IMG/VR virus record: IMGVR_UViG_3300006916_000214
Span: 1 to 30,717 of that record
DNA length: 30,717 nucleotides
Source: a virus
Taxonomy: Duplodnaviria; Caudoviricetes
Direction: 5' to 3' (one strand)
Of the stretch, positions 15,696 to 29,244 are shown one piece after another. Numbering within the stretch: the first letter of the stretch is position 1; every line of letters starts with the position of its first letter. A program made the translations under genes and the position numbers. Below the pieces are notes generated by a model. That model made no database searches. It saw nothing but the letters and a program-made list of their open reading frames with translations, and was not told the DNA's origin.

Positions 15696-15873
15696 TATAT
15701 TCTCTCCATTTATCTATAGGACATGACGCAGAAGCCAGTCTAGTTTTAAGTGACATTATACATTTACATTGAGAACAAAAGTCAAGAGCAGATTTATAGT
15801 ATTCACATTGATTGCATATACTCTTCCGCTCCTGTCTGATTTCCGGTGGCGGGCCAACGACCTCTATGCGCAT
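15688..15873 (-). CDS. Small Cys-rich protein (DUF6171-like, putative metal binding)
   Basis: Likely start ATG 15873 (MRIEVV), 61 aa; pattern R..ICNQC-x9-CSQCKC...K......CP..KW; overlaps both neighbouring genes. Confidence 0.65.
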   Translation of the reverse strand: MRIEVVGPPPEIRQERKSICNQCEYYKSALDFCSQCKCIMSLKTRLASASCPIDKWREYNG

Positions 15874-17639
15874 TCTTTTTGGCCAGTGAGCGGGTCGATG
15901 AAGCAAGCCTCAACCTTTCCCTCTTCTTCAGCCACTTCCGTAGTCTCGCTAGGTACCTCCGCTTCTTCTTCCACGGTTTGGAGTACCCCAAATCTTTTAC
16001 CACTAAGTCGGAACGTTGTGCATCCCTTCGCCCCGCCTTTCCAGGCATCAACATAGACCTGTTTGAACTCATCATATGAGACGTCATCTCCTACATTACA
16101 CGTTTTTGAGCACGCAGAATCAATGTAGTTTTGAGCTAAAAGCAAAACTGCTAAATGATCCTGTACTGAAATATCATTTGCTGTTTTACCTTCTACACCA
16201 TGAGCATAAGCATAATCCTCCACTCTTTCAACCTTCGGGCCCTCAAAGGTTTGAATGGTACGGTCATAGTAATGACTAAATACCGGCTCAATTCCTCCAC
16301 TAATGTTATCAGCAACTAGGCTAATAGTACCTGTAGGAGCGATTGAAGTGAGATGTGAGTTACGAATGCCATGTTCACGAATCTCCTTCTTAACTGAGGC
16401 CGGTAGACCTCTAATAAAGTTTGACTTCAAGTAGTCTTCACGATAGAGCGGGAATGCGCCCTTTTCTTTTGCAAGTCGAGCTGATGCTCTGTAGCAATTG
16501 TCACGCAAGCAGGCGAATACCTTTTCTGCCCACACAAGGAACTCGTCTGAGGCATACGGCATACCGAGCATTTCTCCGGCATTAGCCAAACCAGTGACGC
16601 CAAGTCCCATACGGCGCTTGTTCTTTGCTTCGTCTGATTGCTGTTTGAGTGGATAGATAGTTCTATCAATGACATTATCCATAGCCCTCACGACTTCCTG
16701 AATGTCCTTCTTGAATTGATTAAAATCAAAGTGGGCGTGCCTTACTTCAGCGTCAGTATCTGGAAGCGTGATCGGCATAGTGACATACTTTGTTAGATTA
16801 AAGGAACCAAGCAGGCAAGCGCCATAAGCAGGCAAAGGCTGCTCACCACACGGGTTTGTGGCGCTGATGTCTTCGCAATAAAATAGGTTATTGTATTCAG
16901 CAATGCGGTCAATGAACAGCACACCAGGTTCTGCCCAATCCCAAGTCGACGACATGATTTCGTCCCACAATGCTTTCGCATCAATGGTCTTGTGTTCGAC
17001 TCCATTGAAGCGCAGTGTAAAAGAACTATCCCCATCATTGAGAACGGCCTCCATAAATTCGTCTGTGATACCTACACTAACGTTAAAACCAGTAAGCTTG
17101 TCAGAATTACGTTTAGCAGCAACGAACTCCTCAATGTCCGGATGGTCAACCCTAAGAACGCCCATCTGTGCACCTCGCCGATGTCCCGAACTCGCGATGG
17201 TTTGGCATACAGCATCAAATATGCCCATAAAACTAACCGGCCCCGACGACTGGCTATCAAGTGATTTAATCCTGTCACCACGTGGGCGGATCTTAGAGAA
17301 GTCATAACCGATACCGCCTCCTCTACGCATAGTTTCAGCTGCTTCACTGGCCTTCTCCATAATGCTATTCATACTGTCTTCAATATCACCACTTACAAAA
17401 CAGTTGTAGGCAGTAGTAATTCTGTTTGATCCAACGGCTGCTTGTACTCGTCCTGCTGGCAGAAAACGCATATTACCTAGAATATCTTCCAGATTATAAC
17501 GATGTTCTTGACCATCACAGAGAGCCCTTGCAATACGTTTAATCTTTTCATCAAAGCTTTCGTTTTCTTGACGATACTTCATCATGTCGATCTCTTGCGA
17601 CAACGAGCTTTGAGGTCCGAGATATTCTGTGTTATGCAT
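15864..17639 (-). CDS. nrdJ: Ribonucleotide reductase class II, adenosylcobalamin-dependent
   Basis: Start ATG 17639 (MHNTEY) behind GAGGA; 591 aa. Motifs AYNCFV, RRGGGIG, TNPCGEQPL, GACLLGSFNL, IAPTGTIS and a C-terminal Cys pair (CFIDPLTGQKEC). No class Ia YY pair, no ATP cone and no nrdB in the window. Confidence 0.88.
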   Translation of the reverse strand: MHNTEYLGPQSSLSQEIDMMKYRQENESFDEKIKRIARALCDGQEHRYNLEDILGNMRFLPAGRVQAAVGSNRITTAYNCFVSGDIEDSMNSIMEKASEAAETMRRGGGIGYDFSKIRPRGDRIKSLDSQSSGPVSFMGIFDAVCQTIASSGHRRGAQMGVLRVDHPDIEEFVAAKRNSDKLTGFNVSVGITDEFMEAVLNDGDSSFTLRFNGVEHKTIDAKALWDEIMSSTWDWAEPGVLFIDRIAEYNNLFYCEDISATNPCGEQPLPAYGACLLGSFNLTKYVTMPITLPDTDAEVRHAHFDFNQFKKDIQEVVRAMDNVIDRTIYPLKQQSDEAKNKRRMGLGVTGLANAGEMLGMPYASDEFLVWAEKVFACLRDNCYRASARLAKEKGAFPLYREDYLKSNFIRGLPASVKKEIREHGIRNSHLTSIAPTGTISLVADNISGGIEPVFSHYYDRTIQTFEGPKVERVEDYAYAHGVEGKTANDISVQDHLAVLLLAQNYIDSACSKTCNVGDDVSYDEFKQVYVDAWKGGAKGCTTFRLSGKRFGVLQTVEEEAEVPSETTEVAEEEGKVEACFIDPLTGQKECA

Positions 17640-17689
17640 TTGTCTTTCCTCTTTACATAGTTTTCGGGTCTGTAATAGGAGACACGACA

Positions 17690-18133
17690 CTACGCAAGAG
17701 CATGCATTCTATTCACCAATCTTTCTGCTCTATTAGGAACTTGCTTATACCAACGACTATCAACCATCTCATATCCAGCAGCATTCCAATCTCTAGCATC
17801 TACAGCTTCTTTCATCTTTTTGAATTTGCTTAGACGTGGCCTACCCATGTTAAACATCATATTCGCTATGACCCTCTGGGCTTCTTCAGGTAGATCTTCG
17901 AAGTCAGGATATAGTATCATGCAATCGTTAAGAACCAGCTCAACGTCGTTGTAGAAACATGTATTCACTCGGCTTTCCGAGACTGGCGTTCCGATAGGTT
18001 GTCCATGTTCAGGATCAGCCTCAGTAATAAGGTGACCAATGCCAAAAGTAGGCAGACCAAGATGATCGAGATAAATTTCATACTTTACACCTTCGTCTGC
18101 TATAATCTCTTCTTTAAAAGCGTCTATGTTCAT
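17690..18133 (-). CDS. Endolysin, GH24 (T4-type) lysozyme
   Basis: Catalytic triad E-x8-D-x5-T (EGVKYEIYLDHLGLPTFGIGH), plus MMFNMG and SRWYKQVPNRA. Confidence 0.92.
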   Translation of the reverse strand: MNIDAFKEEIIADEGVKYEIYLDHLGLPTFGIGHLITEADPEHGQPIGTPVSESRVNTCFYNDVELVLNDCMILYPDFEDLPEEAQRVIANMMFNMGRPRLSKFKKMKEAVDARDWNAAGYEMVDSRWYKQVPNRAERLVNRMHALA

Positions 18134-19199: not shown

Positions 19200-19538
19200 T
19201 CACGGCTTCGTAGGCCAGACTACAGTGTCTAGCGAAGTGTAGGTATCTGTAATGTCACGCAGTGCTTGACGATAGTCTCGCTGTGCTTGCGTTGCTGTAC
19301 GGTCTGGTAAAACCCACCAATCAGTCTCTGCCAAAAGACGATTACGTTCTTTACGCAATTCGTTCAGAGGCTTTTCAGCAATGACAGTATCCAATGCGGT
19401 TTGAATTGCGGCTTGTGTGGGCTGAGTTCTGTCATCTTCCCAAACGATTGTGCTGATGTCTTCGTTCTGAACTGTAAATGAAGCGTTAGGAACAAGGGAG
19501 CGAACAGCCTTTAGAATATCTAAGTTTGTTATTGTCAT
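19200..19538 (-). CDS. Tail fibre assembly chaperone-like protein
   Basis: Signature LRKERNRLLAETDWW...YRQALRDIT...WPTKP. Confidence 0.85.
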   Translation of the reverse strand: MTITNLDILKAVRSLVPNASFTVQNEDISTIVWEDDRTQPTQAAIQTALDTVIAEKPLNELRKERNRLLAETDWWVLPDRTATQAQRDYRQALRDITDTYTSLDTVVWPTKP

Positions 19539-20437
19539 CCCTCAAACTCCATAATCAAAATCTGACATTTATTGTTGCCGTGACCAAAATCAAATGTGCC
19601 ACCAGAGCCTGTCATCGCTCCTTGTAGTTTGTAAGTAACAGCACTTGTAGTATTTGGGTGGTCAATCAGCCAGTTACTTGAACTTTCGTGTTGAGTGCTT
19701 GCGTTGCCAGCAACCCGCTCATTTAGGTAAATTTGTGTGCCGTTTCTTAGGACACGACCTTTTGCATCGCCGTTTGGCTGAAAATACCCCCCCCACCGAG
19801 CCATAATAAGAAAGCGGCTATCAGTAGATAATGGGGTTAATGAGATTGAACACCCAGCAATATCGGCCCAACTGTTGTTAGTCTTTATCATTGTGCCGCT
19901 TTGTTGGGCAAAGTTTCTGCGGAACGAATATGTTGTTAAAACTTTTTCCCAAGGGTGCTGGGTTGTTCCCTGCTTTGCGCGAATGGAAAACCGACCAACA
20001 GTGCCACCATCCTGACTACCACGAGTATCTGTGAACCATAGTTGCGCGGCTCTTGAGTTCGTAGCATCGTCGCTCGTGCCACCTAGACCTTCAGTGCTAA
20101 AGTTAAGAACAACAGAATTGACGCCTTGCATTGGGGCGTTTGTATGTGAACTGCCCAAAGCGTAGGAAATAGAATTGGGACTGACAGTGTGCCAGTCGGC
20201 ATTTGTTTCGTCAGCATTGTTCTTCAAATTTAGCTGAAGCCTGTTATTCAGTGTTAAATCACCAGTCGTATTGATGTCACCAGTGCCAGTAATATCGTTG
20301 GAATTTAGGTCAAGATTGCCACCAAGCTGGGGCGTAGTGTCATTCACCAAGTCTGCCGCAGGGACGTTATCTAATGCCCCTGCAACGATATCCCCGTTGG
20401 CATCAACGAGGTTTGCAATGTCTCTTGCTCTAGTCAT
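19535..20437 (-). CDS. Tail fibre/adhesin protein
   Basis: Start moved to ATG 20437 (MTRARDIA) behind GGAGG; 300 aa. DTTPQLGGNLDLN fibre motif; C-terminal beta-sandwich ending TYKLQ...ILIMEFEG. Confidence 0.75.
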   Translation of the reverse strand: MTRARDIANLVDANGDIVAGALDNVPAADLVNDTTPQLGGNLDLNSNDITGTGDINTTGDLTLNNRLQLNLKNNADETNADWHTVSPNSISYALGSSHTNAPMQGVNSVVLNFSTEGLGGTSDDATNSRAAQLWFTDTRGSQDGGTVGRFSIRAKQGTTQHPWEKVLTTYSFRRNFAQQSGTMIKTNNSWADIAGCSISLTPLSTDSRFLIMARWGGYFQPNGDAKGRVLRNGTQIYLNERVAGNASTQHESSSNWLIDHPNTTSAVTYKLQGAMTGSGGTFDFGHGNNKCQILIMEFEG

Positions 20438-20786
20438 TTGCCGCCTCCCATGATTGATTTTCTTCGTTCCATGAATAATAATTATTATCAGTAGGCATTG
20501 CAACAGGAGCTTCCCAACGACATGTTGTTTCGTTTAATGTCCAACTTGCATAAGGCTGAGAAGGATAAAATGCATCTAATTCACGATCATATGTATAGCC
20601 AATCGCTGCATAGTTTTTTCTTAAAGGAATTCCGCCATCAGAATGAACGCCATTAACAGTATTATAACTAGTTTGTACGTATTCAATATTTGGTTCGTTA
20701 GCAAATTTATTAACGTATTCTTCGTCTGCAACGATTACGTTAACAACTTTCATATTATGTAATGTTACTTTTGCGTAATGTGCCAT
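20430..20786 (-). CDS. Hypothetical protein of the type usually found after Gly-rich fibre genes
   Basis: 118 aa; MAHYAKV, VVNVIVAD, QTSYN, RKNYAAIGYTYD..LDAF, PYASWTLNETTCRWEAP. Confidence 0.75.
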   Translation of the reverse strand: MAHYAKVTLHNMKVVNVIVADEEYVNKFANEPNIEYVQTSYNTVNGVHSDGGIPLRKNYAAIGYTYDRELDAFYPSQPYASWTLNETTCRWEAPVAMPTDNNYYSWNEENQSWEAAND

Positions 20787-22369
20787 TATACTGCATACCT
20801 CACTACTACAATTCCACTGCCGCCGTTTGTGCCATTTGTCTGAGTGCCATTTCTTTCAAGACCGCCACCGCCGCCGCCAGTATTTACGCCGCCATTAGTA
20901 CCAGTATGATCAGTAGCACCATTTCCACCGCCACCAGCACCGCCAGAACCAACGTTAGCAGCTGATGATCCTCCGCCACCTCCAGCATAATAAATATTTG
21001 ATCCTGTGCGGAAATTATTTTGAATTCCAGCTCCACCATCTCCGCCTTTAGCGTTACTTTGTTGAGCATCTTGTCCGCGTGCGCCAGCTCCACCGCCACC
21101 ACCAGCGGCCCAATCCGCAACATTGTAAGCTGTTAGGTTTCCATCACCACCATCGTTTCCGTAGTGTGTATATCCTGTTACCGCGCCTTGAATAGTATGA
21201 CCGTTGCGAGTTGAAGCAAGGTTGCCATTACCTGCACCACCTCCTCCACAACCACCATCGTTTCCTGGAGTGTTTTGATAAGTGCCACCAGCACCTCCAC
21301 CAAGAGCAACTGCAGTATCAAACGAAGAATTTCCTCCGTTTTGACCGTTATCAGTAGTATCCCCTTGTACTGTACCACCAGCACCACCAGCACCTACGAC
21401 TACGTTGTATTGGCCTGGAGAAACATTAACATTTGTTCCAACTAAAACTGCACCACCGCCAGCTCCACCATTATGATATTGAGTAGCACCTGTGCCGCCG
21501 CCTGCTGCAACAATAAGAATATCAACATTGCCAGCTGCACCTGTTACTGTAAAAGTTCCACTTGAAGTAAAAGTGTGTACTTTATATCCTGAATAAGTCG
21601 ATTCAGTGCCGCCTTCAGCTTTGAACGAATTAGACATTGTTATCCATTCAGTTCCATTCCAATGGACTACTTCATTTGTACCAGAATTATAATATATTTC
21701 ACCAGTAGTAGGTGAACTTGGGGCAGAAGACTGCGGGTTAAGTTTTACAGTGTTTGAAGTAACGCTACTACTTGATGTAATGCTAGGCGCACTTAGTCCA
21801 CCCGTCATAGTATCGCCAGACTTTTTAACCATATCTGCCAATACAAACTTTTCATACACTACAATTTCTACAAGTTGACCAGCAGTAAGAGCAGTAAGAC
21901 CACCTACTGTGTTTGCTACTGTAGTATTATAGTCATCACCTTGCTTTAGTGATACACCATTAAGTCGTACGTCTATCTGCGCTCCAGCAGTAAATGTAAT
22001 AGTAGCACCGTTGTCATCTGTACCACTTATGCTTGTTTCACCGCCAGTAGCCGTGACGTAATACTTTGTACGTTGTGCTTCACTGTTTGTTTTAGCAAGA
22101 CTATAAATGTCATACACGATTACTTCAAGTACATCATTAGCAGCTAGTGCAGCAAGTCCTGAAATAGTATTAGCAGTAGCTGTGTTATAGTCTGATCCAG
22201 CAACAAGAAGACTACCGTTAAGGTATACGTCTACGTACTCACCATCTTCAAACTTTAGTGTAAGACCATTATCATCTGCACCTGATTTAGAGGTTTCACT
22301 GCCTGTAGCAGTATAATAATAACGTTGTCTAACCCCTAACTTTCCAGGAGATTTTCCTATATATGGCAT
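20786..22369 (-). CDS. Tail fibre protein with duplicated N-terminal beta domain and C-terminal glycine-rich domain
   Basis: 527 aa; MPYIGKSP start, two 79-aa repeats, KKSGDTMTGGL, and YKVHTFTSSGTF...GGGGG...GGSGIVVVRY Gly-rich domain. Confidence 0.8.
   Translation of the reverse strand: MPYIGKSPGKLGVRQRYYYTATGSETSKSGADDNGLTLKFEDGEYVDVYLNGSLLVAGSDYNTATANTISGLAALAANDVLEVIVYDIYSLAKTNSEAQRTKYYVTATGGETSISGTDDNGATITFTAGAQIDVRLNGVSLKQGDDYNTTVANTVGGLTALTAGQLVEIVVYEKFVLADMVKKSGDTMTGGLSAPSITSSSSVTSNTVKLNPQSSAPSSPTTGEIYYNSGTNEVVHWNGTEWITMSNSFKAEGGTESTYSGYKVHTFTSSGTFTVTGAAGNVDILIVAAGGGTGATQYHNGGAGGGAVLVGTNVNVSPGQYNVVVGAGGAGGTVQGDTTDNGQNGGNSSFDTAVALGGGAGGTYQNTPGNDGGCGGGGAGNGNLASTRNGHTIQGAVTGYTHYGNDGGDGNLTAYNVADWAAGGGGGAGARGQDAQQSNAKGGDGGAGIQNNFRTGSNIYYAGGGGGSSAANVGSGGAGGGGNGATDHTGTNGGVNTGGGGGGLERNGTQTNGTNGGSGIVVVRYAV
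21836..22330 (-). repeat. Two diverged intragenic 79-codon repeats (aa 14-92 and 100-178)
   Basis: RQRYYYTATGSETSKSGADDNG...VDVYLNG..L..GSDYNT..ANT aligns with RTKYYVTATGGETSISGTDDNG...IDVRLNG..L..GDDYNT..ANT. Confidence 0.9.
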
Positions 22370-22378
22370 TTAAACCTC

Positions 22379-22969
22379 CTATGTTTTTGCAAATTCAATA
22401 ACTTGAATGGTTGGGTCAGAATGTTCTCCCCAAAACATATAATTAGCACCATTGTAAGCCTTTAACGCGTATGTATATGTTCCTGCAGTTAAATTATCAT
22501 CCCAATGATGCGGATGAAAATTATCATTCCAACCTGATTGTTCAACTGAAATAGTACTAGTGCCAATCATAGAAGTTCCTCTAAACAAGGCAACCCATTG
22601 CCATCCATCAGTTCCATTAACGTTTTGATCTGCATTAGCCATTACTAGACAACTAGAGCCTTCTCTAACAGTAATACTAACATCTACAATTGTTGTCCAA
22701 CTACTAGAATTAATTGTTACTCCAGTTATTTGTCCTTGGACTCGTTGTCTTTGAACTCGCATTGATTCACCAGATAATTTAAAGTTACCTAAAACATCAA
22801 TATCTGTTGCAGAAACGTTTCCTGTTCCTGAAATATTAAAATTATTAAGGCTTAAATTACCACCTAGTTGAGGGGTTGTGTCAAGCGATAAATCAAGGTT
22901 GCTAAGGTGTCCTGACTTGACATCTCCTGATGTATCAAGCAAATCGGCAAGATGTCTAGCGTTACTCAT
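22379..22969 (-). CDS. Short tail fibre/adhesin protein
   Basis: 196 aa. N-terminus MSNARHLADLLD...DTTPQLGGNL is paralogous to 19535..20437; C-terminal beta-sandwich ending TYTYALKA...IQVIEF. Confidence 0.75.
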   Translation of the reverse strand: MSNARHLADLLDTSGDVKSGHLSNLDLSLDTTPQLGGNLSLNNFNISGTGNVSATDIDVLGNFKLSGESMRVQRQRVQGQITGVTINSSSWTTIVDVSITVREGSSCLVMANADQNVNGTDGWQWVALFRGTSMIGTSTISVEQSGWNDNFHPHHWDDNLTAGTYTYALKAYNGANYMFWGEHSDPTIQVIEFAKT

Positions 22970-23394: not shown

Positions 23395-23901
23395 TTATCC
23401 TATTAAATGCCCGTGAAAACCGCCATGAGTTCTATAGTATGAGCCAGCTGGACTACTAGTAGTTTTTATTCGCACGTCAACAGTATCATTAACGTTGCAA
23501 TCAAGAATTACTGATCCAGAAACATTTTGTTCTGTAGTTCCTGTGATTGCTCTATATTGCGGCAATTTCTCTGTGCCATTTAAGTGAAATGATATGTTAC
23601 TAGACATACTTGAAAGTTGAAGAACACTCATATTAAACAAATAAATTCCAGCAATTGGTACTACATATTGATCATTTGTAAAATTAAACGCATTATGACT
23701 GTCATAGTTTGTAGAATCATATGGTAATTTTACATAAGAAGCAGTAGCAGCAATTGACGCAGGACTATTATGATAAACACTAAATGCTACAGCTTTACTT
23801 GTTAGTACTTGAGGCATATTTATATTACCGCTACTATCAATGCTTAGTGCATTAGTACCAGTTGCATTTTGAATAGCATCAACTTTAATAATACTGCTCA
23901 T
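23395..23901 (-). CDS. Small fibre head protein with C1q-like domain
   Basis: MSSIIKVDAI start; AFSV...LPYD....D..NAF....YVVPIAGIYLF...DTVDV...FHGHLIG C1q pattern. Confidence 0.75.
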   Translation of the reverse strand: MSSIIKVDAIQNATGTNALSIDSSGNINMPQVLTSKAVAFSVYHNSPASIAATASYVKLPYDSTNYDSHNAFNFTNDQYVVPIAGIYLFNMSVLQLSSMSSNISFHLNGTEKLPQYRAITGTTEQNVSGSVILDCNVNDTVDVRIKTTSSPAGSYYRTHGGFHGHLIG

Positions 23902-24446
23902 CCTGCTATCTCCATTGCTGTAAATTTCAGCGGAATGATGTCATTCCTCATTCGTGCTAGTTGGTTGGCATTTTGATTTCTGACATACACTCTGTAGCGA
24001 TGTGTTTGGGTGCTGGAAATCGCATCATAGAATTGCATTTCCTGACCAATAATTATTCGTTCACCAGTGTCGTGAACCCTAGCTAGAGCGTCATAATTGT
24101 TAGAGTTATTGGGCGTTACATTAGTGTATGAGCCGTTGTTTACACTTTTGAAAAAGGTGTACATAGCCCTGTAATCAGTACCCGCATTGTCGGTGTTGAT
24201 TACGGCTGTCAGCAGAATGTAGGAGTTAGCGAACTTAGGTGTGATTGTAAGTTCGCTTTCTGTACCGCCGCTAACCCAACTGTTTGAGCTTGCTTGGATT
24301 TGACTGCCAGACACATTACCAGAATAGACATCAGACGATGTGCGGTGAACAACTTGAATGACACTACCTGTCGGCAACGTCAGGTTAGGCGCACTAATCT
24401 TGCTCTGGAGATTAGGCGCAATGTTATCTACATATATAGTTGTCAT
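23898..24446 (-). CDS. Small fibre head protein (GxVxQVV...MEIA class)
   Basis: MTTIYVDNI start; GSVIQVV, ITPKFANSYILL, and MEIAG end. Confidence 0.7.
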   Translation of the reverse strand: MTTIYVDNIAPNLQSKISAPNLTLPTGSVIQVVHRTSSDVYSGNVSGSQIQASSNSWVSGGTESELTITPKFANSYILLTAVINTDNAGTDYRAMYTFFKSVNNGSYTNVTPNNSNNYDALARVHDTGERIIIGQEMQFYDAISSTQTHRYRVYVRNQNANQLARMRNDIIPLKFTAMEIAG

Positions 24447-25006
24447 TGTGCAATCTCCATTACTGTTACAAAGGCTTGGCCTGTATTGTCATTTACCCTA
24501 GCGTTTCCAGTTCCAGCCCCTCTATTAAACCAATGAGAAAAGTAAAGAGTGTCCGTAGTAGAATAAGCGTCATACCAAGTTACTGTATTACCTCTCGTAA
24601 TTATGTAACCGCTGTTATCGTTTCTATAAGACTCATCGTGGCTAAATGATTCAACAGGGTTGTTAGTCACAAAATTATCCGTGCTAACATACGCCTTTAC
24701 TCCCATTCGGGTGTTACCTTGTACCGCCGCACCATAAGTAAATGTGATAAGCATTTTACTGTTAGCTTGTTTTGGGGTAATCGTGACTCGATAGTCAGGA
24801 GTTATTTCTGAGTAAGAAGCAGAAGTTGCAGCACTACCACCAGTTCTCACATATGTGCTTCTAACAACCTGTAACACACCATTAGTAGGGGTCAGTAAGT
24901 CTCCACCACTAGCATCCAGCGTTACCCCCGAAGGAATAATCACCTTATTAGCATTAGCACCTGTAGTAGGCGCGCTTATTTCATTAACAATTATTTTACT
25001 AGCCAT
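24443..25006 (-). CDS. Small fibre head protein (GxVxQVV...MEIA class)
   Basis: MASKIIVNEI start; GVLQVV, ITPKQANSKMLI, and MEIAQ end. Confidence 0.7.
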   Translation of the reverse strand: MASKIIVNEISAPTTGANANKVIIPSGVTLDASGGDLLTPTNGVLQVVRSTYVRTGGSAATSASYSEITPDYRVTITPKQANSKMLITFTYGAAVQGNTRMGVKAYVSTDNFVTNNPVESFSHDESYRNDNSGYIITRGNTVTWYDAYSTTDTLYFSHWFNRGAGTGNARVNDNTGQAFVTVMEIAQ

Positions 25007-25007
25007 A

Positions 25008-25244
25008 CTACACCACCGTCAAAGTTCCGTTTACTGTTAGCGTTGCGTTAAACGTAAGTGGTCCTGCAGCAAGCGCATTTGTGTTAGCAGGGATAGTTGT
25101 AGCCGTATCAAGAGAAGCTTCGTGTACACGGAAAATATCGCCTTGCCCGTTAGTAACATCCCCAGTGTTACCATTTTCGCCTGTAAAATAACCAGCACCT
25201 AACTGGCCTGATATTCCTTCGGCAGGTATTTTGCTAAGTGCCAT
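25008..25244 (-). CDS. 78-aa fibre 'anchor/connector' protein
   Basis: GGAG RBS. The last 65 aa match the C-terminus of 26824..27360 at 50 of 65 positions by manual alignment. Confidence 0.8.
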   Translation of the reverse strand: MALSKIPAEGISGQLGAGYFTGENGNTGDVTNGQGDIFRVHEASLDTATTIPANTNALAAGPLTFNATLTVNGTLTVV

Positions 25245-25254
25245 GTTGTTCTCC

Positions 25255-25788
25255 TTATCCTAGATACTTGATTGTCATATTATTATGGACATTATTATTA
25301 CCATAGATATCGCCATTAGCAAGGTAATATAGATGCACGTCAAGTATATCATTTACTGCACACTGAACAATAGTGCTAGCAGACACGGTATGTTCTTCTG
25401 CACCATTACTATACTGCCAAACTAAAGACCTGTCTGATGAAGTTGAAGACCAACCAACACTTTGTGGAATTGCGTTTTTACGAATATTTGTCCTATGTCC
25501 ACTTGTACAACCACGAAGAAGATAATTAAAAGAAACTTCATAATATCCTGCTCTTGGACATGTATATCTAGAAGTAGATGTATCATGTGCGTTAGCAGTA
25601 TCAATAGTTATATTATTATAAGGAATAATTCCTGCTGTTGTTAATGTTGTATTTGAATAAGCAGAAAGAATAATTGGTGTTGTAATAATAGGTGGACTAG
25701 GTAATGTTGCTGTTCCATCACTTGCTAGCGTAATTGAATTAGTTCCAGAAGAATTCTGGATGCTATCTACTTTAAGTACTCCTGTCAT
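25255..25788 (-). CDS. Small fibre head protein with C1q-like domain
   Basis: MTGVLKVDSI start; IPYN...IDT.NA....RYTCPRAGYYEV...NDILDV...IKYLG. Confidence 0.75.
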   Translation of the reverse strand: MTGVLKVDSIQNSSGTNSITLASDGTATLPSPPIITTPIILSAYSNTTLTTAGIIPYNNITIDTANAHDTSTSRYTCPRAGYYEVSFNYLLRGCTSGHRTNIRKNAIPQSVGWSSTSSDRSLVWQYSNGAEEHTVSASTIVQCAVNDILDVHLYYLANGDIYGNNNVHNNMTIKYLG

Positions 25789-25798
25789 CCTATCCTCC

Positions 25799-26293
25799 TT
25801 ATCCTAACAAACAACCACTAAAATTACAATGTCCCATATAAAACAAAACATCGCCTACACTGAGCCTTAACCTAACACCAAATGTATCGTTAGCATCTAA
25901 CCCAATAATACATTGTAAACTAGAAGAAGAATTAGCAGGGGTTCTAGCTTCATCAATATCGCCGCCTACATTAAACTGACTTCCGTTACGTTCCCAAGTT
26001 GTGCGGCTTATATTACTAGAACTTCCAGCAAGAAATGTATTGTGAACAAATAAATATAATCCTGTTACTGGTGCTGTAAACAAATATGTTGAAGTTGAGA
26101 ATGCATTGCCAACATTTTGATAGGTTGCATTAAAAGGTAACAAACTTCCAGCAGTTACAGTTGTATCTCCGTTAGTTGATCCTGCATAAAAATGTACTTT
26201 TTGTGAATTTAATACACGACCACTACTATCAATAGTTAATCCAGCAGTACCATTAGTATGCTGGAGAGTTTCAACGCCTAGTATACTTGCCAT
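25799..26293 (-). CDS. Small fibre head protein with C1q-like domain
   Basis: MASILGVETL start; LPFN....NVGNAF....FTAPVTGLYLF...LDANDT...FSGCLLG. Confidence 0.8.
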   Translation of the reverse strand: MASILGVETLQHTNGTAGLTIDSSGRVLNSQKVHFYAGSTNGDTTVTAGSLLPFNATYQNVGNAFSTSTYLFTAPVTGLYLFVHNTFLAGSSSNISRTTWERNGSQFNVGGDIDEARTPANSSSSLQCIIGLDANDTFGVRLRLSVGDVLFYMGHCNFSGCLLG

Positions 26294-26303
26294 TTGAAAT
26301 CTC

Positions 26304-26831
26304 CTATCCTGCTATTTCTGTAAGTGTAATTGTTGAAATATAGTTTCCGCCAACATTATTGTTTTGGTCATTCTCAGCCCTATTAATAAAAATACTTCGA
26401 GAGTTATCATTATTAACAAAAAATGTATAGCTAACTTGTGATGTTGATGCAGGGCTGTCTAAAAAATTAAATGTACCAACTTGACCCTGATTGCCATCAC
26501 CAGTAAAACCTAAAGGAATTGTAGCATTTTGTCGGCTACCTCTTGCATCTCCTAAACTTGCAGAAACAAGTGCGCCATTTCTTTTAAAGTACAATTTATA
26601 TGTTGTTGCTGTACAAGAATAGCTTACGTTTGCTGTAATTAAAATTTTACTTGATGTAGAAAGGGGAGTAATGTTTGCTGCTAAACCACTTATTTCTTTT
26701 TCTACTGTGTTTGATGTAAGTATTTGTGTGTCAGTTTTAGTTACTTGAACAACTTGAACTACATGACCTGGGATATATACACCATTACCTATGGTTTTTT
26801 CATTAATTGTGTCAACATTTAAACTAGACAA
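26304..26831 (-). CDS. Small fibre head protein (GxVxQVV...EIA class)
   Basis: TTG start overlapping the upstream stop; (M)SSLNVDTI, PGHVVQVVQ, ITPLSTSSKILI, LDSPASTSQVSY, and TEIAG end. Confidence 0.75.
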   Translation of the reverse strand: MSSLNVDTINEKTIGNGVYIPGHVVQVVQVTKTDTQILTSNTVEKEISGLAANITPLSTSSKILITANVSYSCTATTYKLYFKRNGALVSASLGDARGSRQNATIPLGFTGDGNQGQVGTFNFLDSPASTSQVSYTFFVNNDNSRSIFINRAENDQNNNVGGNYISTITLTEIAG

Positions 26832-27360
26832 TGGTCAATGCTCCGTTAATAGTTAGGGTTGCATTTAAAGAAAGTGGACCATTGGCAGATGCGTTAGTAT
26901 TAGCCGCAATAGTTACATTAGTATCTAGTTGCGCTTCATGAACTCTAAAAATATCTCCAAGTCCATTTGTTGTATCACCTGTTGTTCCATTCTCGCCTAA
27001 AAAATATCCTGCGCCTAGCTGTACACCTGAAGCTATTTTAGCCTGGGTAACACTACCATTAGCTAATTTAGCTGTAGTAATGCTTCCATCATCAGGCGTC
27101 GTAGTACCTTGAGCAAAGCCATCATATATTACATAAAAGTCATCTGTTGAAGCCACGTTACCTGTCATAGTAAGAGTAGTGCCTGTCGCAGTGTATGCCA
27201 CGGCAGGCTCTTGTCTTACATTATTAACAAAGACTTCAATATCTTTTGCGTCACTTACAGAGTGTGTTAGCGTGTAAGGCCCAGTTGTACCATTACCAGT
27301 TAAGGTTTGTTTTCTTTTAGAGACGTATAGCTCTAATGGTTCGTTACCAACGTATCCCAT
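26824..27360 (-). CDS. Fibre 'anchor/connector' protein
   Basis: 178 aa; MGYVGNEP start, beta domain (IEVFVNNVRQEP..AYT), ITTAKLA/VTQAKIA repeats, and conserved C-terminal GDIFRVHE...GPL...LTINGALTIV. Confidence 0.75.
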   Translation of the reverse strand: MGYVGNEPLELYVSKRKQTLTGNGTTGPYTLTHSVSDAKDIEVFVNNVRQEPAVAYTATGTTLTMTGNVASTDDFYVIYDGFAQGTTTPDDGSITTAKLANGSVTQAKIASGVQLGAGYFLGENGTTGDTTNGLGDIFRVHEAQLDTNVTIAANTNASANGPLSLNATLTINGALTIV

Positions 27361-27369
27361 TTAAACCTC

Positions 27370-27705
27370 CTACTGACTAATGTCATCAACGGCAGATACC
27401 CACGCATCTAGACTTGTTGCTAGGCTCGACTTAATCCAAAGTCTGTCGCCGCTTTTAACTACGATTTTAGCTCCACCATCCAATACCTGTAAAGCTGAAC
27501 CTGAAGGAATTGGAATTTCTTTTGCAAGGTAAATGTCGTTAGTGCCGTCATTAATATAAACATCTACCAAAGCTTGGTTAGGATCTTTGTTTGTGATATG
27601 AATACCTACAATAGTATCAAAGCTATCAAACGCTGCCGCATTAGGAATACTAGCCGCAGTCGTGCCGATATTATGTAAAGTATATCGCCTAAAATTCTGT
27701 GCCAT
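27370..27705 (-). CDS. Small beta-sandwich structural protein (fibre-associated)
   Basis: 111 aa; MAQNF...YLAKEIPIPSGSAL...KIVVKSGD...LDAWVS. In marine phages this type usually follows genes ending in AIAMAIAL. Confidence 0.7.
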   Translation of the reverse strand: MAQNFRRYTLHNIGTTAASIPNAAAFDSFDTIVGIHITNKDPNQALVDVYINDGTNDIYLAKEIPIPSGSALQVLDGGAKIVVKSGDRLWIKSSLATSLDAWVSAVDDISQ

Positions 27706-27714
27706 GTTATTCTC

Positions 27715-29244
27715 CTATAGTGCGATTGCCATAGCGATAGCAAAACCATTTGTAGCACCTTCTTGAGTAGGCGTCCAAACCTGAGTACCAGTGTCGTAAA
27801 CCTTTAGCTTGCCGTTAGTGCTATCATAATATAATGCGCCGTTGATAAGTGCATTTCCGTCGTTGTCTAGAGTAGGATCAGAAGACTTTGCGCCAAGATA
27901 AGTATCATCGAAGCTATCAAACTGAGAAGCCGCCTGTTCTGCCCAATATTTTGCAGAGTAATTTGTGCCGTCAACTGTTGTGTTAGTTGCATAGCTACTT
28001 CCACCACCTATCGCCCACTGTTTTGCAGAGCCATCTGTCTGGCCCGCCTGGCTTCCTACAGCCCACTCTTTAGATGAGTAACCAGTACCATCAACAGTGC
28101 CTGTAGTTTTAACTGCCCATTCCTGAGAGGCCCCAGATCCTGCAGTGTTGGTTACCCCAGTACCACCAATAGCCCAAGCTTTAGAAGAGTATCCTTCTCC
28201 TGTTACAGCTTCGCCATTAATCTTTTGGGCCCACGCTTCTGCTTCATCTTCAGATCCTTGGGCGTCTGTAGCAGAGTTTGCCGCATTAGTCTCGCTAGTT
28301 GCAGCATTTGTTTCCGATGTAGACGCGTTGCTTTCTGACGTAGCAGCATTCGTAGCAGAGGTGGCTGCGGCAGTAGCTGAATTAGCTGCGGCAGTTGCTG
28401 AGCTAGACGCGGCTGTGGCACTTGTCGATGCGTTTGTCTCAGAAGTAGAGGCATTAGTCGCAGACGTAGCAGCGTTAGACTCGCTTGTTGCTGCGTTACT
28501 TGCGCTAGTCGCTGCATTCGTAGCTGAAGTCGCTGCTGCTGTAGCTTGCGTTGTCGCTGTCGTAGCAGAGGTAGCTGCGTTAGTGGCACTCGTTGCCGCA
28601 TTAGTCTCGCTAGTGGCTGCGTTCGTCTCACTTGTCGCGGCGTTGGTAGCGCTAGTAGCCGCTGCCGTGGCGCTATTAGCTGCAGCAGTAGCTTGTGAAG
28701 AAGCCGTAGCTGCGTCTGCCGTAATAGAGTTAGCATAGTGCTTTGCAGAATACTCTGTACCATCAACTGTTCCGCCAGTTTTAGTAGCCCACTCTTTCGC
28801 CGCTCCAGCTGCAATGCTATTGGTTACACCTGTACCGCCTATAGCCCAAGCTTTAGAGCTGTAATCAGTACTTTCAACAATGCCGTTAGTCTTTACTGCC
28901 CAGTCCTGAGCGTCATCAGCGGAATCATCTGCGTTAGTCGCAGAAGTTGCGGCAGCAGTAGCTGATCCTGACGCCGCAGACGCGCTACCAGAAGCTGCAG
29001 TTGCGCTATTAGCCGCGTTAGCGGCGCTAGTAGCTGCGTTAGCCTCGCTTAAAGCCGCATCATTCGCGGACTGTTGAGCAGCGGCAAGGTCAGCAGCAAT
29101 GGCCGGTGTAATGCTTTGATAGTTAGCTTCTTCAGCTCCAAAGAAGGAGCCTGCTTGAGCCTTTGTTGTGGCGCCTGAAGCAGCAACGCTATGTTCTGCA
29201 TCGTTCAAGTTAGTTACAGTAGAGGGTTGAGCTGGTGTAGCCAT
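27715..29244 (-). CDS. Tail fibre shaft protein with Ala/Thr/Ser/Asn heptad coiled coil
   Basis: 509 aa; AATSATN/AATSETN heptads, YSSKxWA repeats, FDDTYLGAKSSDPTLDNDGNAL..GALYY motif, and GFAIAMAIAL C-terminus. Confidence 0.8.
   Translation of the reverse strand: MATPAQPSTVTNLNDAEHSVAASGATTKAQAGSFFGAEEANYQSITPAIAADLAAAQQSANDAALSEANAATSAANAANSATAASGSASAASGSATAAATSATNADDSADDAQDWAVKTNGIVESTDYSSKAWAIGGTGVTNSIAAGAAKEWATKTGGTVDGTEYSAKHYANSITADAATASSQATAAANSATAAATSATNAATSETNAATSETNAATSATNAATSATTATTQATAAATSATNAATSASNAATSESNAATSATNASTSETNASTSATAASSSATAAANSATAAATSATNAATSESNASTSETNAATSETNAANSATDAQGSEDEAEAWAQKINGEAVTGEGYSSKAWAIGGTGVTNTAGSGASQEWAVKTTGTVDGTGYSSKEWAVGSQAGQTDGSAKQWAIGGGSSYATNTTVDGTNYSAKYWAEQAASQFDSFDDTYLGAKSSDPTLDNDGNALINGALYYDSTNGKLKVYDTGTQVWTPTQEGATNGFAIAMAIAL
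28263..28710 (-). repeat. Degenerate 21-nt (7-codon) tandem repeat encoding coiled-coil heptads
   Basis: About 20 heptads of AA[TN]S[AE][TS][NA]; a shorter block lies at ~28920-29060. Confidence 0.85.

Follow-up and report, generated by a model that had tools for sequence, protein, structure and literature searches.

The 30,717-nucleotide window analysed here, positions 1 to 30,717 of the viral record IMGVR_UViG_3300006916_000214 (Caudoviricetes), encodes two tandem cassettes in which a short fibre protein, the anchor, is followed by three small proteins, the heads. Each anchor ends in a compact C-terminal module, referred to here as the socket, that recurs in other phage genomes, where it is accompanied by a near-constant number of three head genes. 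We consider it very probable that the heads dock on the socket, and we lean towards an arrangement in which one chain of each of the three heads would form a single tip, docked non-covalently in a 1:1:1 stoichiometry on a homotrimeric fibre.

All eight open reading frames of the two tandem units are found on the minus strand at the sizes given by the first-pass annotation (Table 1). The anchors are 76.9% identical over 65 amino acids (50/65, E 2e-33 in a local all-against-all comparison), and 31 of their 51 same-meaning codons (stop included) differ synonymously, in agreement with the many silent changes reported for them previously. The alignment spans the proposed 65-residue domain, but its conserved core is confined to the last ~45 residues. 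Residues 22–113 of anchor A match the P-SCSP1u fibre gp28 (8i4m, E 3e-5) as well as PHROG tail-fibre families. The strand motif [LI]xV[DEN]x[IL], which had been suggested to open every head, is present within the first 14 residues of 6/6 heads and of 0/11 neighbouring proteins, and a looser form matches 8 of 202 other genes of 100–270 amino acids in related loci, at least three of these eight being heads whose socket is cut off or displaced.

The socket is a strictly terminal module. In the fetched loci 248/248 sockets end 0–1 residues before the stop codon (redundancy included), and searching for longer proteins related to anchor B retrieves 103 of 147–823 amino acids; in the 91 rows and 12 protein ends examined the domain is located at the C-terminus, three having a truncated version. 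A profile of 55 rows matches at least 2322 of 7999 scored proteins; among the 120 matches listed, the socket is terminal in 119 and is followed by 11 extra residues in the remaining one. The core of ~45 residues contains T, N and G columns that are invariant in the 55-row alignment, and the carriers, many of which possess a T7-type fibre N-anchor, range from 63 to more than 3000 amino acids. No fused socket-head protein is seen among the socket proteins examined, and no longer, fused form of head B3 is present among 1284 candidates, the latter being weak evidence. Three fibres (P0099, P0101 and P0103) have a socket that ends early in an unrelated tail, reflecting a frameshift or an assembly error.

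A monomer model of anchor B reaches a predicted local distance difference test (pLDDT) score of 81–90 over residues 31–66 of the folded piece and displays short repeated strands, such that the socket core is predicted to be a short, open-ended beta-solenoid; continuation of a beta-helix by the heads would be compatible with these modelled strands. Six weak Foldseek rows for the socket model (E 4–9) are all beta-solenoid-type proteins, and are taken as a lead only. The socket has no match among PDB sequences, and in the ESM Atlas anchor B leads to unnamed viral clusters, and 28/30 of the hits to anchor A are unnamed.

Socket and heads co-occur across podovirus- and myovirus-type genomes. Searches that start from the heads recover the socket one to three genes upstream in 51/51 and 43/43 distinct loci (5 and 9 loci with less than 1.5 kb of upstream sequence were set aside). 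With B3 as the query, 14/16 loci have a socket, the other two being cut. Head genes lacking the anchor domain, a possibility raised by the first-pass annotation, are therefore not encountered in these loci, and its central proposal, that the fibre is split into a constant socket and receptor-binding tips encoded by genes of their own, is supported by this linkage, by the terminal position of the socket and by its presence at the end of the trimeric P-SSP7 fibre gp17. The same observations bear on an alternative in which the heads bind the virion at another site, the socket forms a terminal domain in its own right and the linkage reflects operon history. Such an arrangement would be in keeping with the head of phage Hodr, which is not adjacent to its socket, and with other small proteins of the region that bear conserved N-terminal peptides of their own and for which further docking routes probably exist. 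We nevertheless regard it as quite improbable, given that socket and heads travel together in genomes of both types and with carriers of such different length, and that the socket invariably lies upstream in the head-first loci and stops at a fixed residue. In Hodr, two genes of 106 and 190 amino acids that flank the socket (L202 2671-3781) have in common a different conserved C-terminal end, which is possibly a second socket family.

The number of heads per socket is close to constant. Among 194 distinct cassettes, 149 have a visible end (the 45 cut by contig ends were dropped), and a rule based on motif and size counts three heads in 134 of these, two in 9, one in 5 and four in 1, with three being the mode in 22/24 socket lineages. 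On reading the 15 exceptions, 10 turn out to have three heads: in four the motif or the start call had been missed, in one a different adaptor type bearing its own chaperone is inserted, in two the third head lies one gene later and in three it lies directly upstream of the socket. Of the others, four run into contig ends and one carries four heads. Two whole loci (L100 and L101) contain three tandem socket cassettes, with up to nine heads per genome.

The junction between anchor and first head is tight in both units of the window, as had been noted: A1 overlaps its anchor (Table 1), and B1 starts 1 nucleotide past the anchor B stop. Both first heads are in the +1 frame near the anchor stop, as would be expected if a programmed frameshift or read-through fused the anchor covalently to the first head. 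The frame at this junction is not conserved, however, being distributed 98/32/19 over the three frames of the 149 cassettes, and fusion is thus extremely improbable; in addition, the first heads have their own start codons, and heads 2 and 3 would be left unexplained. On the basis of the junction frames, the programmed-frameshift candidate was rejected.

Among cultured phages, 16 sockets from 15 phages were read, 9 of which are accompanied by three heads, namely those of HMO-2011 (two cassettes), SS120-1, MEP402, Vibrio 1.232, Mel-JY33, Sf-FR1, Melnitz and Lederberg. In Vibrio 1.232 the third adaptor type is judged by eye, in Melnitz one of the three heads lies upstream, and the Lederberg socket has diverged (E 7e-4 against a small local database, below the threshold of the genome search). 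The head alignment was built from the heads that it then matched, so that only its lack of extra matches is informative. The three-head rule is strong but not universal, and is weakest in T4-like cyanophages. The heads of Sf-FR1 carry the glycine-rich domain PF21722, and a halogenase gene is located close behind them; in T4-like cyanophages (L194, L195, L197 and L017), genes that are annotated as 2OG-Fe(II) oxygenases, or look like them, are found close downstream of the heads.

The cyanophage P-SSP7 connects the module to published experiments. The fibre gp17 combines a T7 N-anchor with a C-terminal end that is a socket (E 1e-14), and genes 37–39 encode QVV heads followed by a probable chaperone. 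The trimer of gp17 has been modelled over 117 N-terminal residues, with its distal domains left unresolved in the available part of that 2026 preprint (10.64898/2026.08.19.745834). Genes 37–39 were described by Schwartz and Lindell (2017; PMC5520035) as three paralogues that form a cassette downstream of the fibre; the authors report resistance-breaking mutations in genes 37 and 38, cite Lindell 2007 for the presence of gp37 and gp38 in virions, state the virion location of these two proteins as unknown and, in the sections available, regard the three genes as P-SSP7-specific among T7-like cyanophages. The listed resistance-breaking positions, residues 126–166, agree with the sequences and lie within the head body. 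Heads absent from virions, which the first-pass annotation had raised as a counter-indication, are thus not what is reported for these P-SSP7 homologues. A further gene of P-SSP7, gene 41 (L190 5828-6469), encodes a fourth QVV head with a canonical adaptor motif, and is situated after the chaperone and outside the published triplet.

The N-terminal ~25–40 residues of each head, here termed the adaptor, are specific to the position of the gene within the cassette. For 135/141 heads the nearest adaptor from another cassette occupies the same slot, and heads of the same lineage and slot have adaptors that are 59% identical and bodies that are 23% identical (medians); adaptors within one cassette have a median identity of 23%. 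When adaptors are clustered at 60%, a class is repeated in 4/134 cassettes, compared with a mean of 68 in within-lineage shuffles (n=1000, minimum 52). A further adaptor type, which starts with MV(Q/S)(I/R)xxGDD, occupies one of the three slots in two loci (L046, after the socket; L200 5226-5594). Bodies are less tied to position, with five cross-slot pairs compared with 11 same-slot pairs, and the body of B1 recurs behind a slot-2 adaptor (Table 1). For A1, B1 and B2, moreover, contigs from the sequencing runs that contain window DNA span the body and connect the conserved flanks on either side of it; matched at 85% likeness, these contigs may derive from other phages, and are consistent with replaced bodies in co-occurring variants.

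As one of two options, the first-pass annotation had proposed that tips compete for the socket and so yield virions with mixed specificities. In this case each head would be a homotrimer, any of which could cap the socket trimer, and the six fibres of a virion would carry a random mix of tips. The variable count in phages with one, two or four heads (Syn1, Hodr and others), the single motif common to all adaptors, the homotrimeric state of a fused form and the trimer-on-trimer docking via N-terminal hairpins proposed for A-1(L) neck fibres are all in line with competition. Competing tips would, however, leave the number of heads free, whereas three are seen in 134/149 cassettes, and would drive the adaptors to converge, whereas those within a cassette are dissimilar and their classes are rarely repeated. 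A fixed three-chain tip fits the near-constant count and the three slot-specific N-termini better than competing tips, and competition is thus a less supported part of the first-pass annotation; we judge it unlikely.

Although the heads belong to different sequence families, all six probably share the TNF/C1q fold. The Pfam C1q family recognizes A2 and B3 above its cut-off and A3 below it. The model of B2 (pLDDT 83) resembles, in Foldseek, the TNF-like lectins PLTL and BC2L-C, as well as RANKL and Pgp3, with a template-modelling score (TM-score) of about 0.5 by query, and the profile of its QVV family matches the C-terminus of the LME-1 fibre orf22 (E 3e-22). A1 and B1 are assigned a TNF-like body through homology to B2. 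Since the QVV model is TNF/C1q-like, a single fold for the six heads is probable; the earlier division into divergent C1q-like and QVV-type domains holds in that both types are present, but probably does not extend to the fold. Profiles of QVV and C1q heads align only over the first ~31 columns, which correspond to the adaptor. B2 has no match among cultured phages; in Kolga a QVV body is fused within a 581-amino-acid protein, and HTVC010P has a QVV domain and no socket.

A common fold would make an assembly resembling the A, B and C chains of C1q possible, C1q being a heterotrimer. TNF/C1q folds are, on the other hand, usually homotrimers, as they would be if each socket protomer held a homotrimer of one head to give three branches and nine head chains per fibre. 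Three such branches would account for the number three and for the per-head chaperones of some phages, and would tolerate mixed body families in one cassette. Symmetric sites would nevertheless require neither three genes nor slot-specific adaptors, as one gene would fill all of them, and we consider a branched arrangement rather unlikely.

In the three-chain tip that we favour, the anchor would end in the socket and three downstream-encoded tip proteins would dock on it together, one chain each. Having one chain of each head per fibre would most simply explain why a fixed terminal socket on a trimer is accompanied by three genes, with three adaptors that are not equivalent. Each adaptor would prolong the open strand of one socket protomer, and the three adaptors would fit solely as a set; the bodies would then pack like the A, B and C chains of C1q, or splay if they have other folds. 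A Tfa-like chaperone may aid folding. Diversity would arise through recombination between co-occurring phages at the conserved adaptor and gene-end sequences, rather than through competition of tips within a virion, and the phage represented by the window would have two such tips, A and B. It is possible, although we propose this only tentatively, that the ~45-residue beta-solenoid socket on homotrimeric fibres is a universal connector of aquatic phages, which would assemble an obligate heterotrimeric C1q-like A/B/C tip from three genes in podoviruses and T4-like myoviruses that infect cyanobacteria, SAR11, SAR116, OM43 and Vibrio.

Several observations weigh against a fixed heterotrimeric tip. 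The metagenomic cassette with four heads, L149, departs from the rule, as do 7/16 cultured sockets without exactly three heads: there are four in P-SSP7 (three, the chaperone, then one), P-SSM4 and Syn33 (one of only 86 amino acids), two in P-HM1 and S-CAM4, and one in Syn1 and Hodr, the single-head phages indicating that homotrimers may dock in some lineages. The fused QVV form of LME-1 is a homotrimer. Chaperones of their own adjoin individual heads in MEP402 and HMO-2011, which fits heads that fold as separate homotrimers. The sample is redundant, with all three bodies belonging to one family in 86/134 triplets. Inheritance of gene order, together with recombination at junctions, can produce slot fidelity, and clustering at 50% chains the adaptor classes and is uninformative (116 observed compared with 121.5). 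In addition, the adaptors of P-SSP7 genes 37–39 are off the window motif, and the socket model is modest, with a predicted template-modelling score (pTM) of 0.52 and no Foldseek match at E<=0.001.

Table 1. Cassette genes of the window and the adjoining fibre and chaperone genes, in window coordinates
Feature	Position	Strand	Basis
Phage_tail_APC tail-fibre assembly chaperone, 133 amino acids	22981..23382	-	Pfam PF16778 E 3e-10; cassette member beyond the region first annotated
Head B3, 168 amino acids, slot-3 adaptor and C1q body	23395..23901	-	Pfam C1q E 2e-11
Head B2, 182 amino acids, slot-2 adaptor and QVV body, predicted TNF/C1q-like jelly roll	23898..24446	-	Model and family profile
Head B1, 187 amino acids, slot-1 adaptor and QVV body	24443..25006	-	Body 86% identical to slot-2 head in L058
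Anchor B, 78 amino acids, short N-terminal peptide and socket	25008..25244	-	No Pfam or PHROG family
Head A3, 177 amino acids, C1q-like body	25255..25788	-	Pfam C1q E 7e-4, under curated cut-off; blastp to B3 E 4e-20
Head A2, 164 amino acids, C1q body	25799..26293	-	Pfam C1q E 4e-8
Head A1, 175 amino acids, TTG start, QVV-type body	26304..26831	-	8-nucleotide overlap with anchor A; same start and overlap in L003, L004
Core of the anchor A socket, final ~45 codons plus stop	26824..26961	-	Invariant T, N, G columns, 55-row alignment
Anchor A, 178 amino acids, N-terminal fibre beta-domain and C-terminal socket	26824..27360	-	Socket common to anchor B
111-amino-acid protein upstream of anchor A	27370..27705	-	Relatives precede socket genes in many loci
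509-amino-acid Ala/Thr-rich tail fibre	27715..29244	-	PHROG tail-fibre families, best E 1e-35

The window represents the minus-strand late region of a podovirus-like phage, with all genes on one strand, and encodes an SU10-type adaptor, the 509-residue fibre, the cassettes, more fibre genes and chaperones, a holin, a lysozyme, a ribonucleotide reductase and large virion proteins. The 509-residue fibre is the probable proximal shaft, and the 111-residue protein is a candidate for the hub that would join the anchors to this long fibre. The length of the Ala/Thr-repeat fibre differs among relatives, being 364, 460 and 446 amino acids in L003, L004 and L008, respectively. In the window the six heads are followed by a single chaperone gene, and in MEP402 and HMO-2011 chaperone genes stand beside individual heads; a chaperone of the Phage_tail_APC type is the fourth gene in 22/47 three-head cassettes. 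Three more fibre-like genes, of 196, 527 and 300 amino acids, lie at 19535-22969 (-). The 196- and 300-residue proteins have an N-terminal peptide in common, and such peptides, like those of anchors A and B, are found again from locus to locus, which suggests a fibre hub that has multiple branches and offers several types of docking. The ribonucleotide reductase gene (15864-17690, -) is placed between the lysis genes and the large virion genes. It is placed likewise in Roseobacter phage CRP-7, where it is split in two around a 157-residue open reading frame (L093 19937-22555). CRP-7 is also the sole cultured match of the SU10-type adaptor (37%), and no socket ending was seen by eye in its fibre genes.

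A stretch identical to the window is contained in a 40.8-kb IMG/VR contig (L001). The first-pass annotation had described similar small genes as common in marine phages; the module is indeed widespread, but the runs with most of the window DNA are labelled as freshwater or aquatic metagenomes, such that a marine origin is not established for this phage. Contigs of one RNA run extend over 27/30 bins of the window, which is no evidence of transcription, and counts of promoters and terminators are at chance level. No invertase or reverse transcriptase is present among the 29 proteins of the window, and its repeats, inspected for an invertible locus or one of the diversity-generating retroelement type, are short and imperfect only; the matching contig, at 40.8 kb, extends beyond the window.

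The stretch that follows the fibre gene belongs to the most variable parts of the genomes of abundant marine phages, and a link between its small genes and host range has been drawn without a structural account. Through the socket these genes would gain a common attachment point and a stoichiometry that is testable in P-SSP7, HMO-2011, Melnitz, Lederberg and MEP402, and docking on it would place the resistance-breaking gp37 and gp38 of P-SSP7 at the tip of the fibre. It may also serve as a marker for receptor-binding genes in metagenomes (at least 2322 protein clusters). If true, a heterotrimeric tip would depart from the homotrimeric pattern of tailed-phage fibres and would allow three specificities to be reshuffled independently within one tip.

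Separate tips are known from the T-even phages T2, T6 and S16, in which the hypervariable adhesin gp38 binds non-covalently to the trimeric fibre gp37, with one gene and one monomer per fibre. The cassettes are alike in that the tip gene lies directly downstream of the fibre, but the window has three heads with C1q or QVV bodies instead of a single glycine-rich gp38-like adhesin. Several receptor-binding proteins on one headless anchor are found in K1-5/SP6 (gp37), KP32 and CBA120, where large homotrimeric tailspikes occupy distinct sites. A headless anchor followed by several receptor-binding genes is common to these adapter or branched systems and to the window, which differs in its terminal socket of ~45 residues, matched by nothing in PDB, Pfam or PHROG, and in heads of 164–187 amino acids. 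In the neck fibre of A-1(L), beta-hairpins at the N-terminus of one protein dock on another protein's C-terminal domain (gp82-gp81-gp80; PMC10966104), yet the chain is described there, in the part of the report available, as head-to-tail homotrimers with no three-gene tip. The QVV body corresponds to the C-terminal domain of LME-1 orf22 (PDB 9efk; PMC12407071), which, in the accessible portion of that account, is a fused, single-gene homotrimer with its distal part unmodelled.

Two published accounts overlap with the cassette itself. The gp17 fibre and genes 37–39 of P-SSP7 (PMC5520035) constitute the same system, with a socket-ended fibre, three QVV heads and a probable chaperone, and differ from the window in the fourth head after the chaperone; the available sections of that paper give no attachment mechanism, socket or rule of three. 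Likewise, Mizuno et al. 2014 (PMC3909814) describe small C1q genes that lie beside fibres and combine a conserved N-terminus with a variable body, and regard C1q-domain genes as candidate receptor-binding genes in marine metaviromic islands; neither a socket nor a triplet nor a docking model is given in the part available. The novelty implied by the first-pass annotation is thereby reduced, since the P-SSP7 triplet and C1q genes beside fibres were already published, albeit without a mechanism. A full-text literature search (few subscription papers, no supplements) found no description of the socket or of the rule of three, and the available parts of the phi92, cryoconite, Melnitz and P-SSP7 tomography papers contain nothing on the module. 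Split tips and a heterotrimeric virophage fibre are already known.

The heterotrimeric precedent is the virophage DSLV2 (PMC12724248), for which three consecutive paralogues in position-specific clades and a 1:1:1 heterotrimer are reported in the accessible part of the study. Compared by description, the DSLV2 fibre consists of a collar resembling the T4 gp37 tip and a needle fold, and is proposed to dock on a capsid protein (PMC12724248, in the part available). The window heads differ from it in that the B2 model is TNF/C1q-like and no collar family is present among them, but the cassettes share with DSLV2 an arrangement of three consecutive paralogues with position-specific classes.

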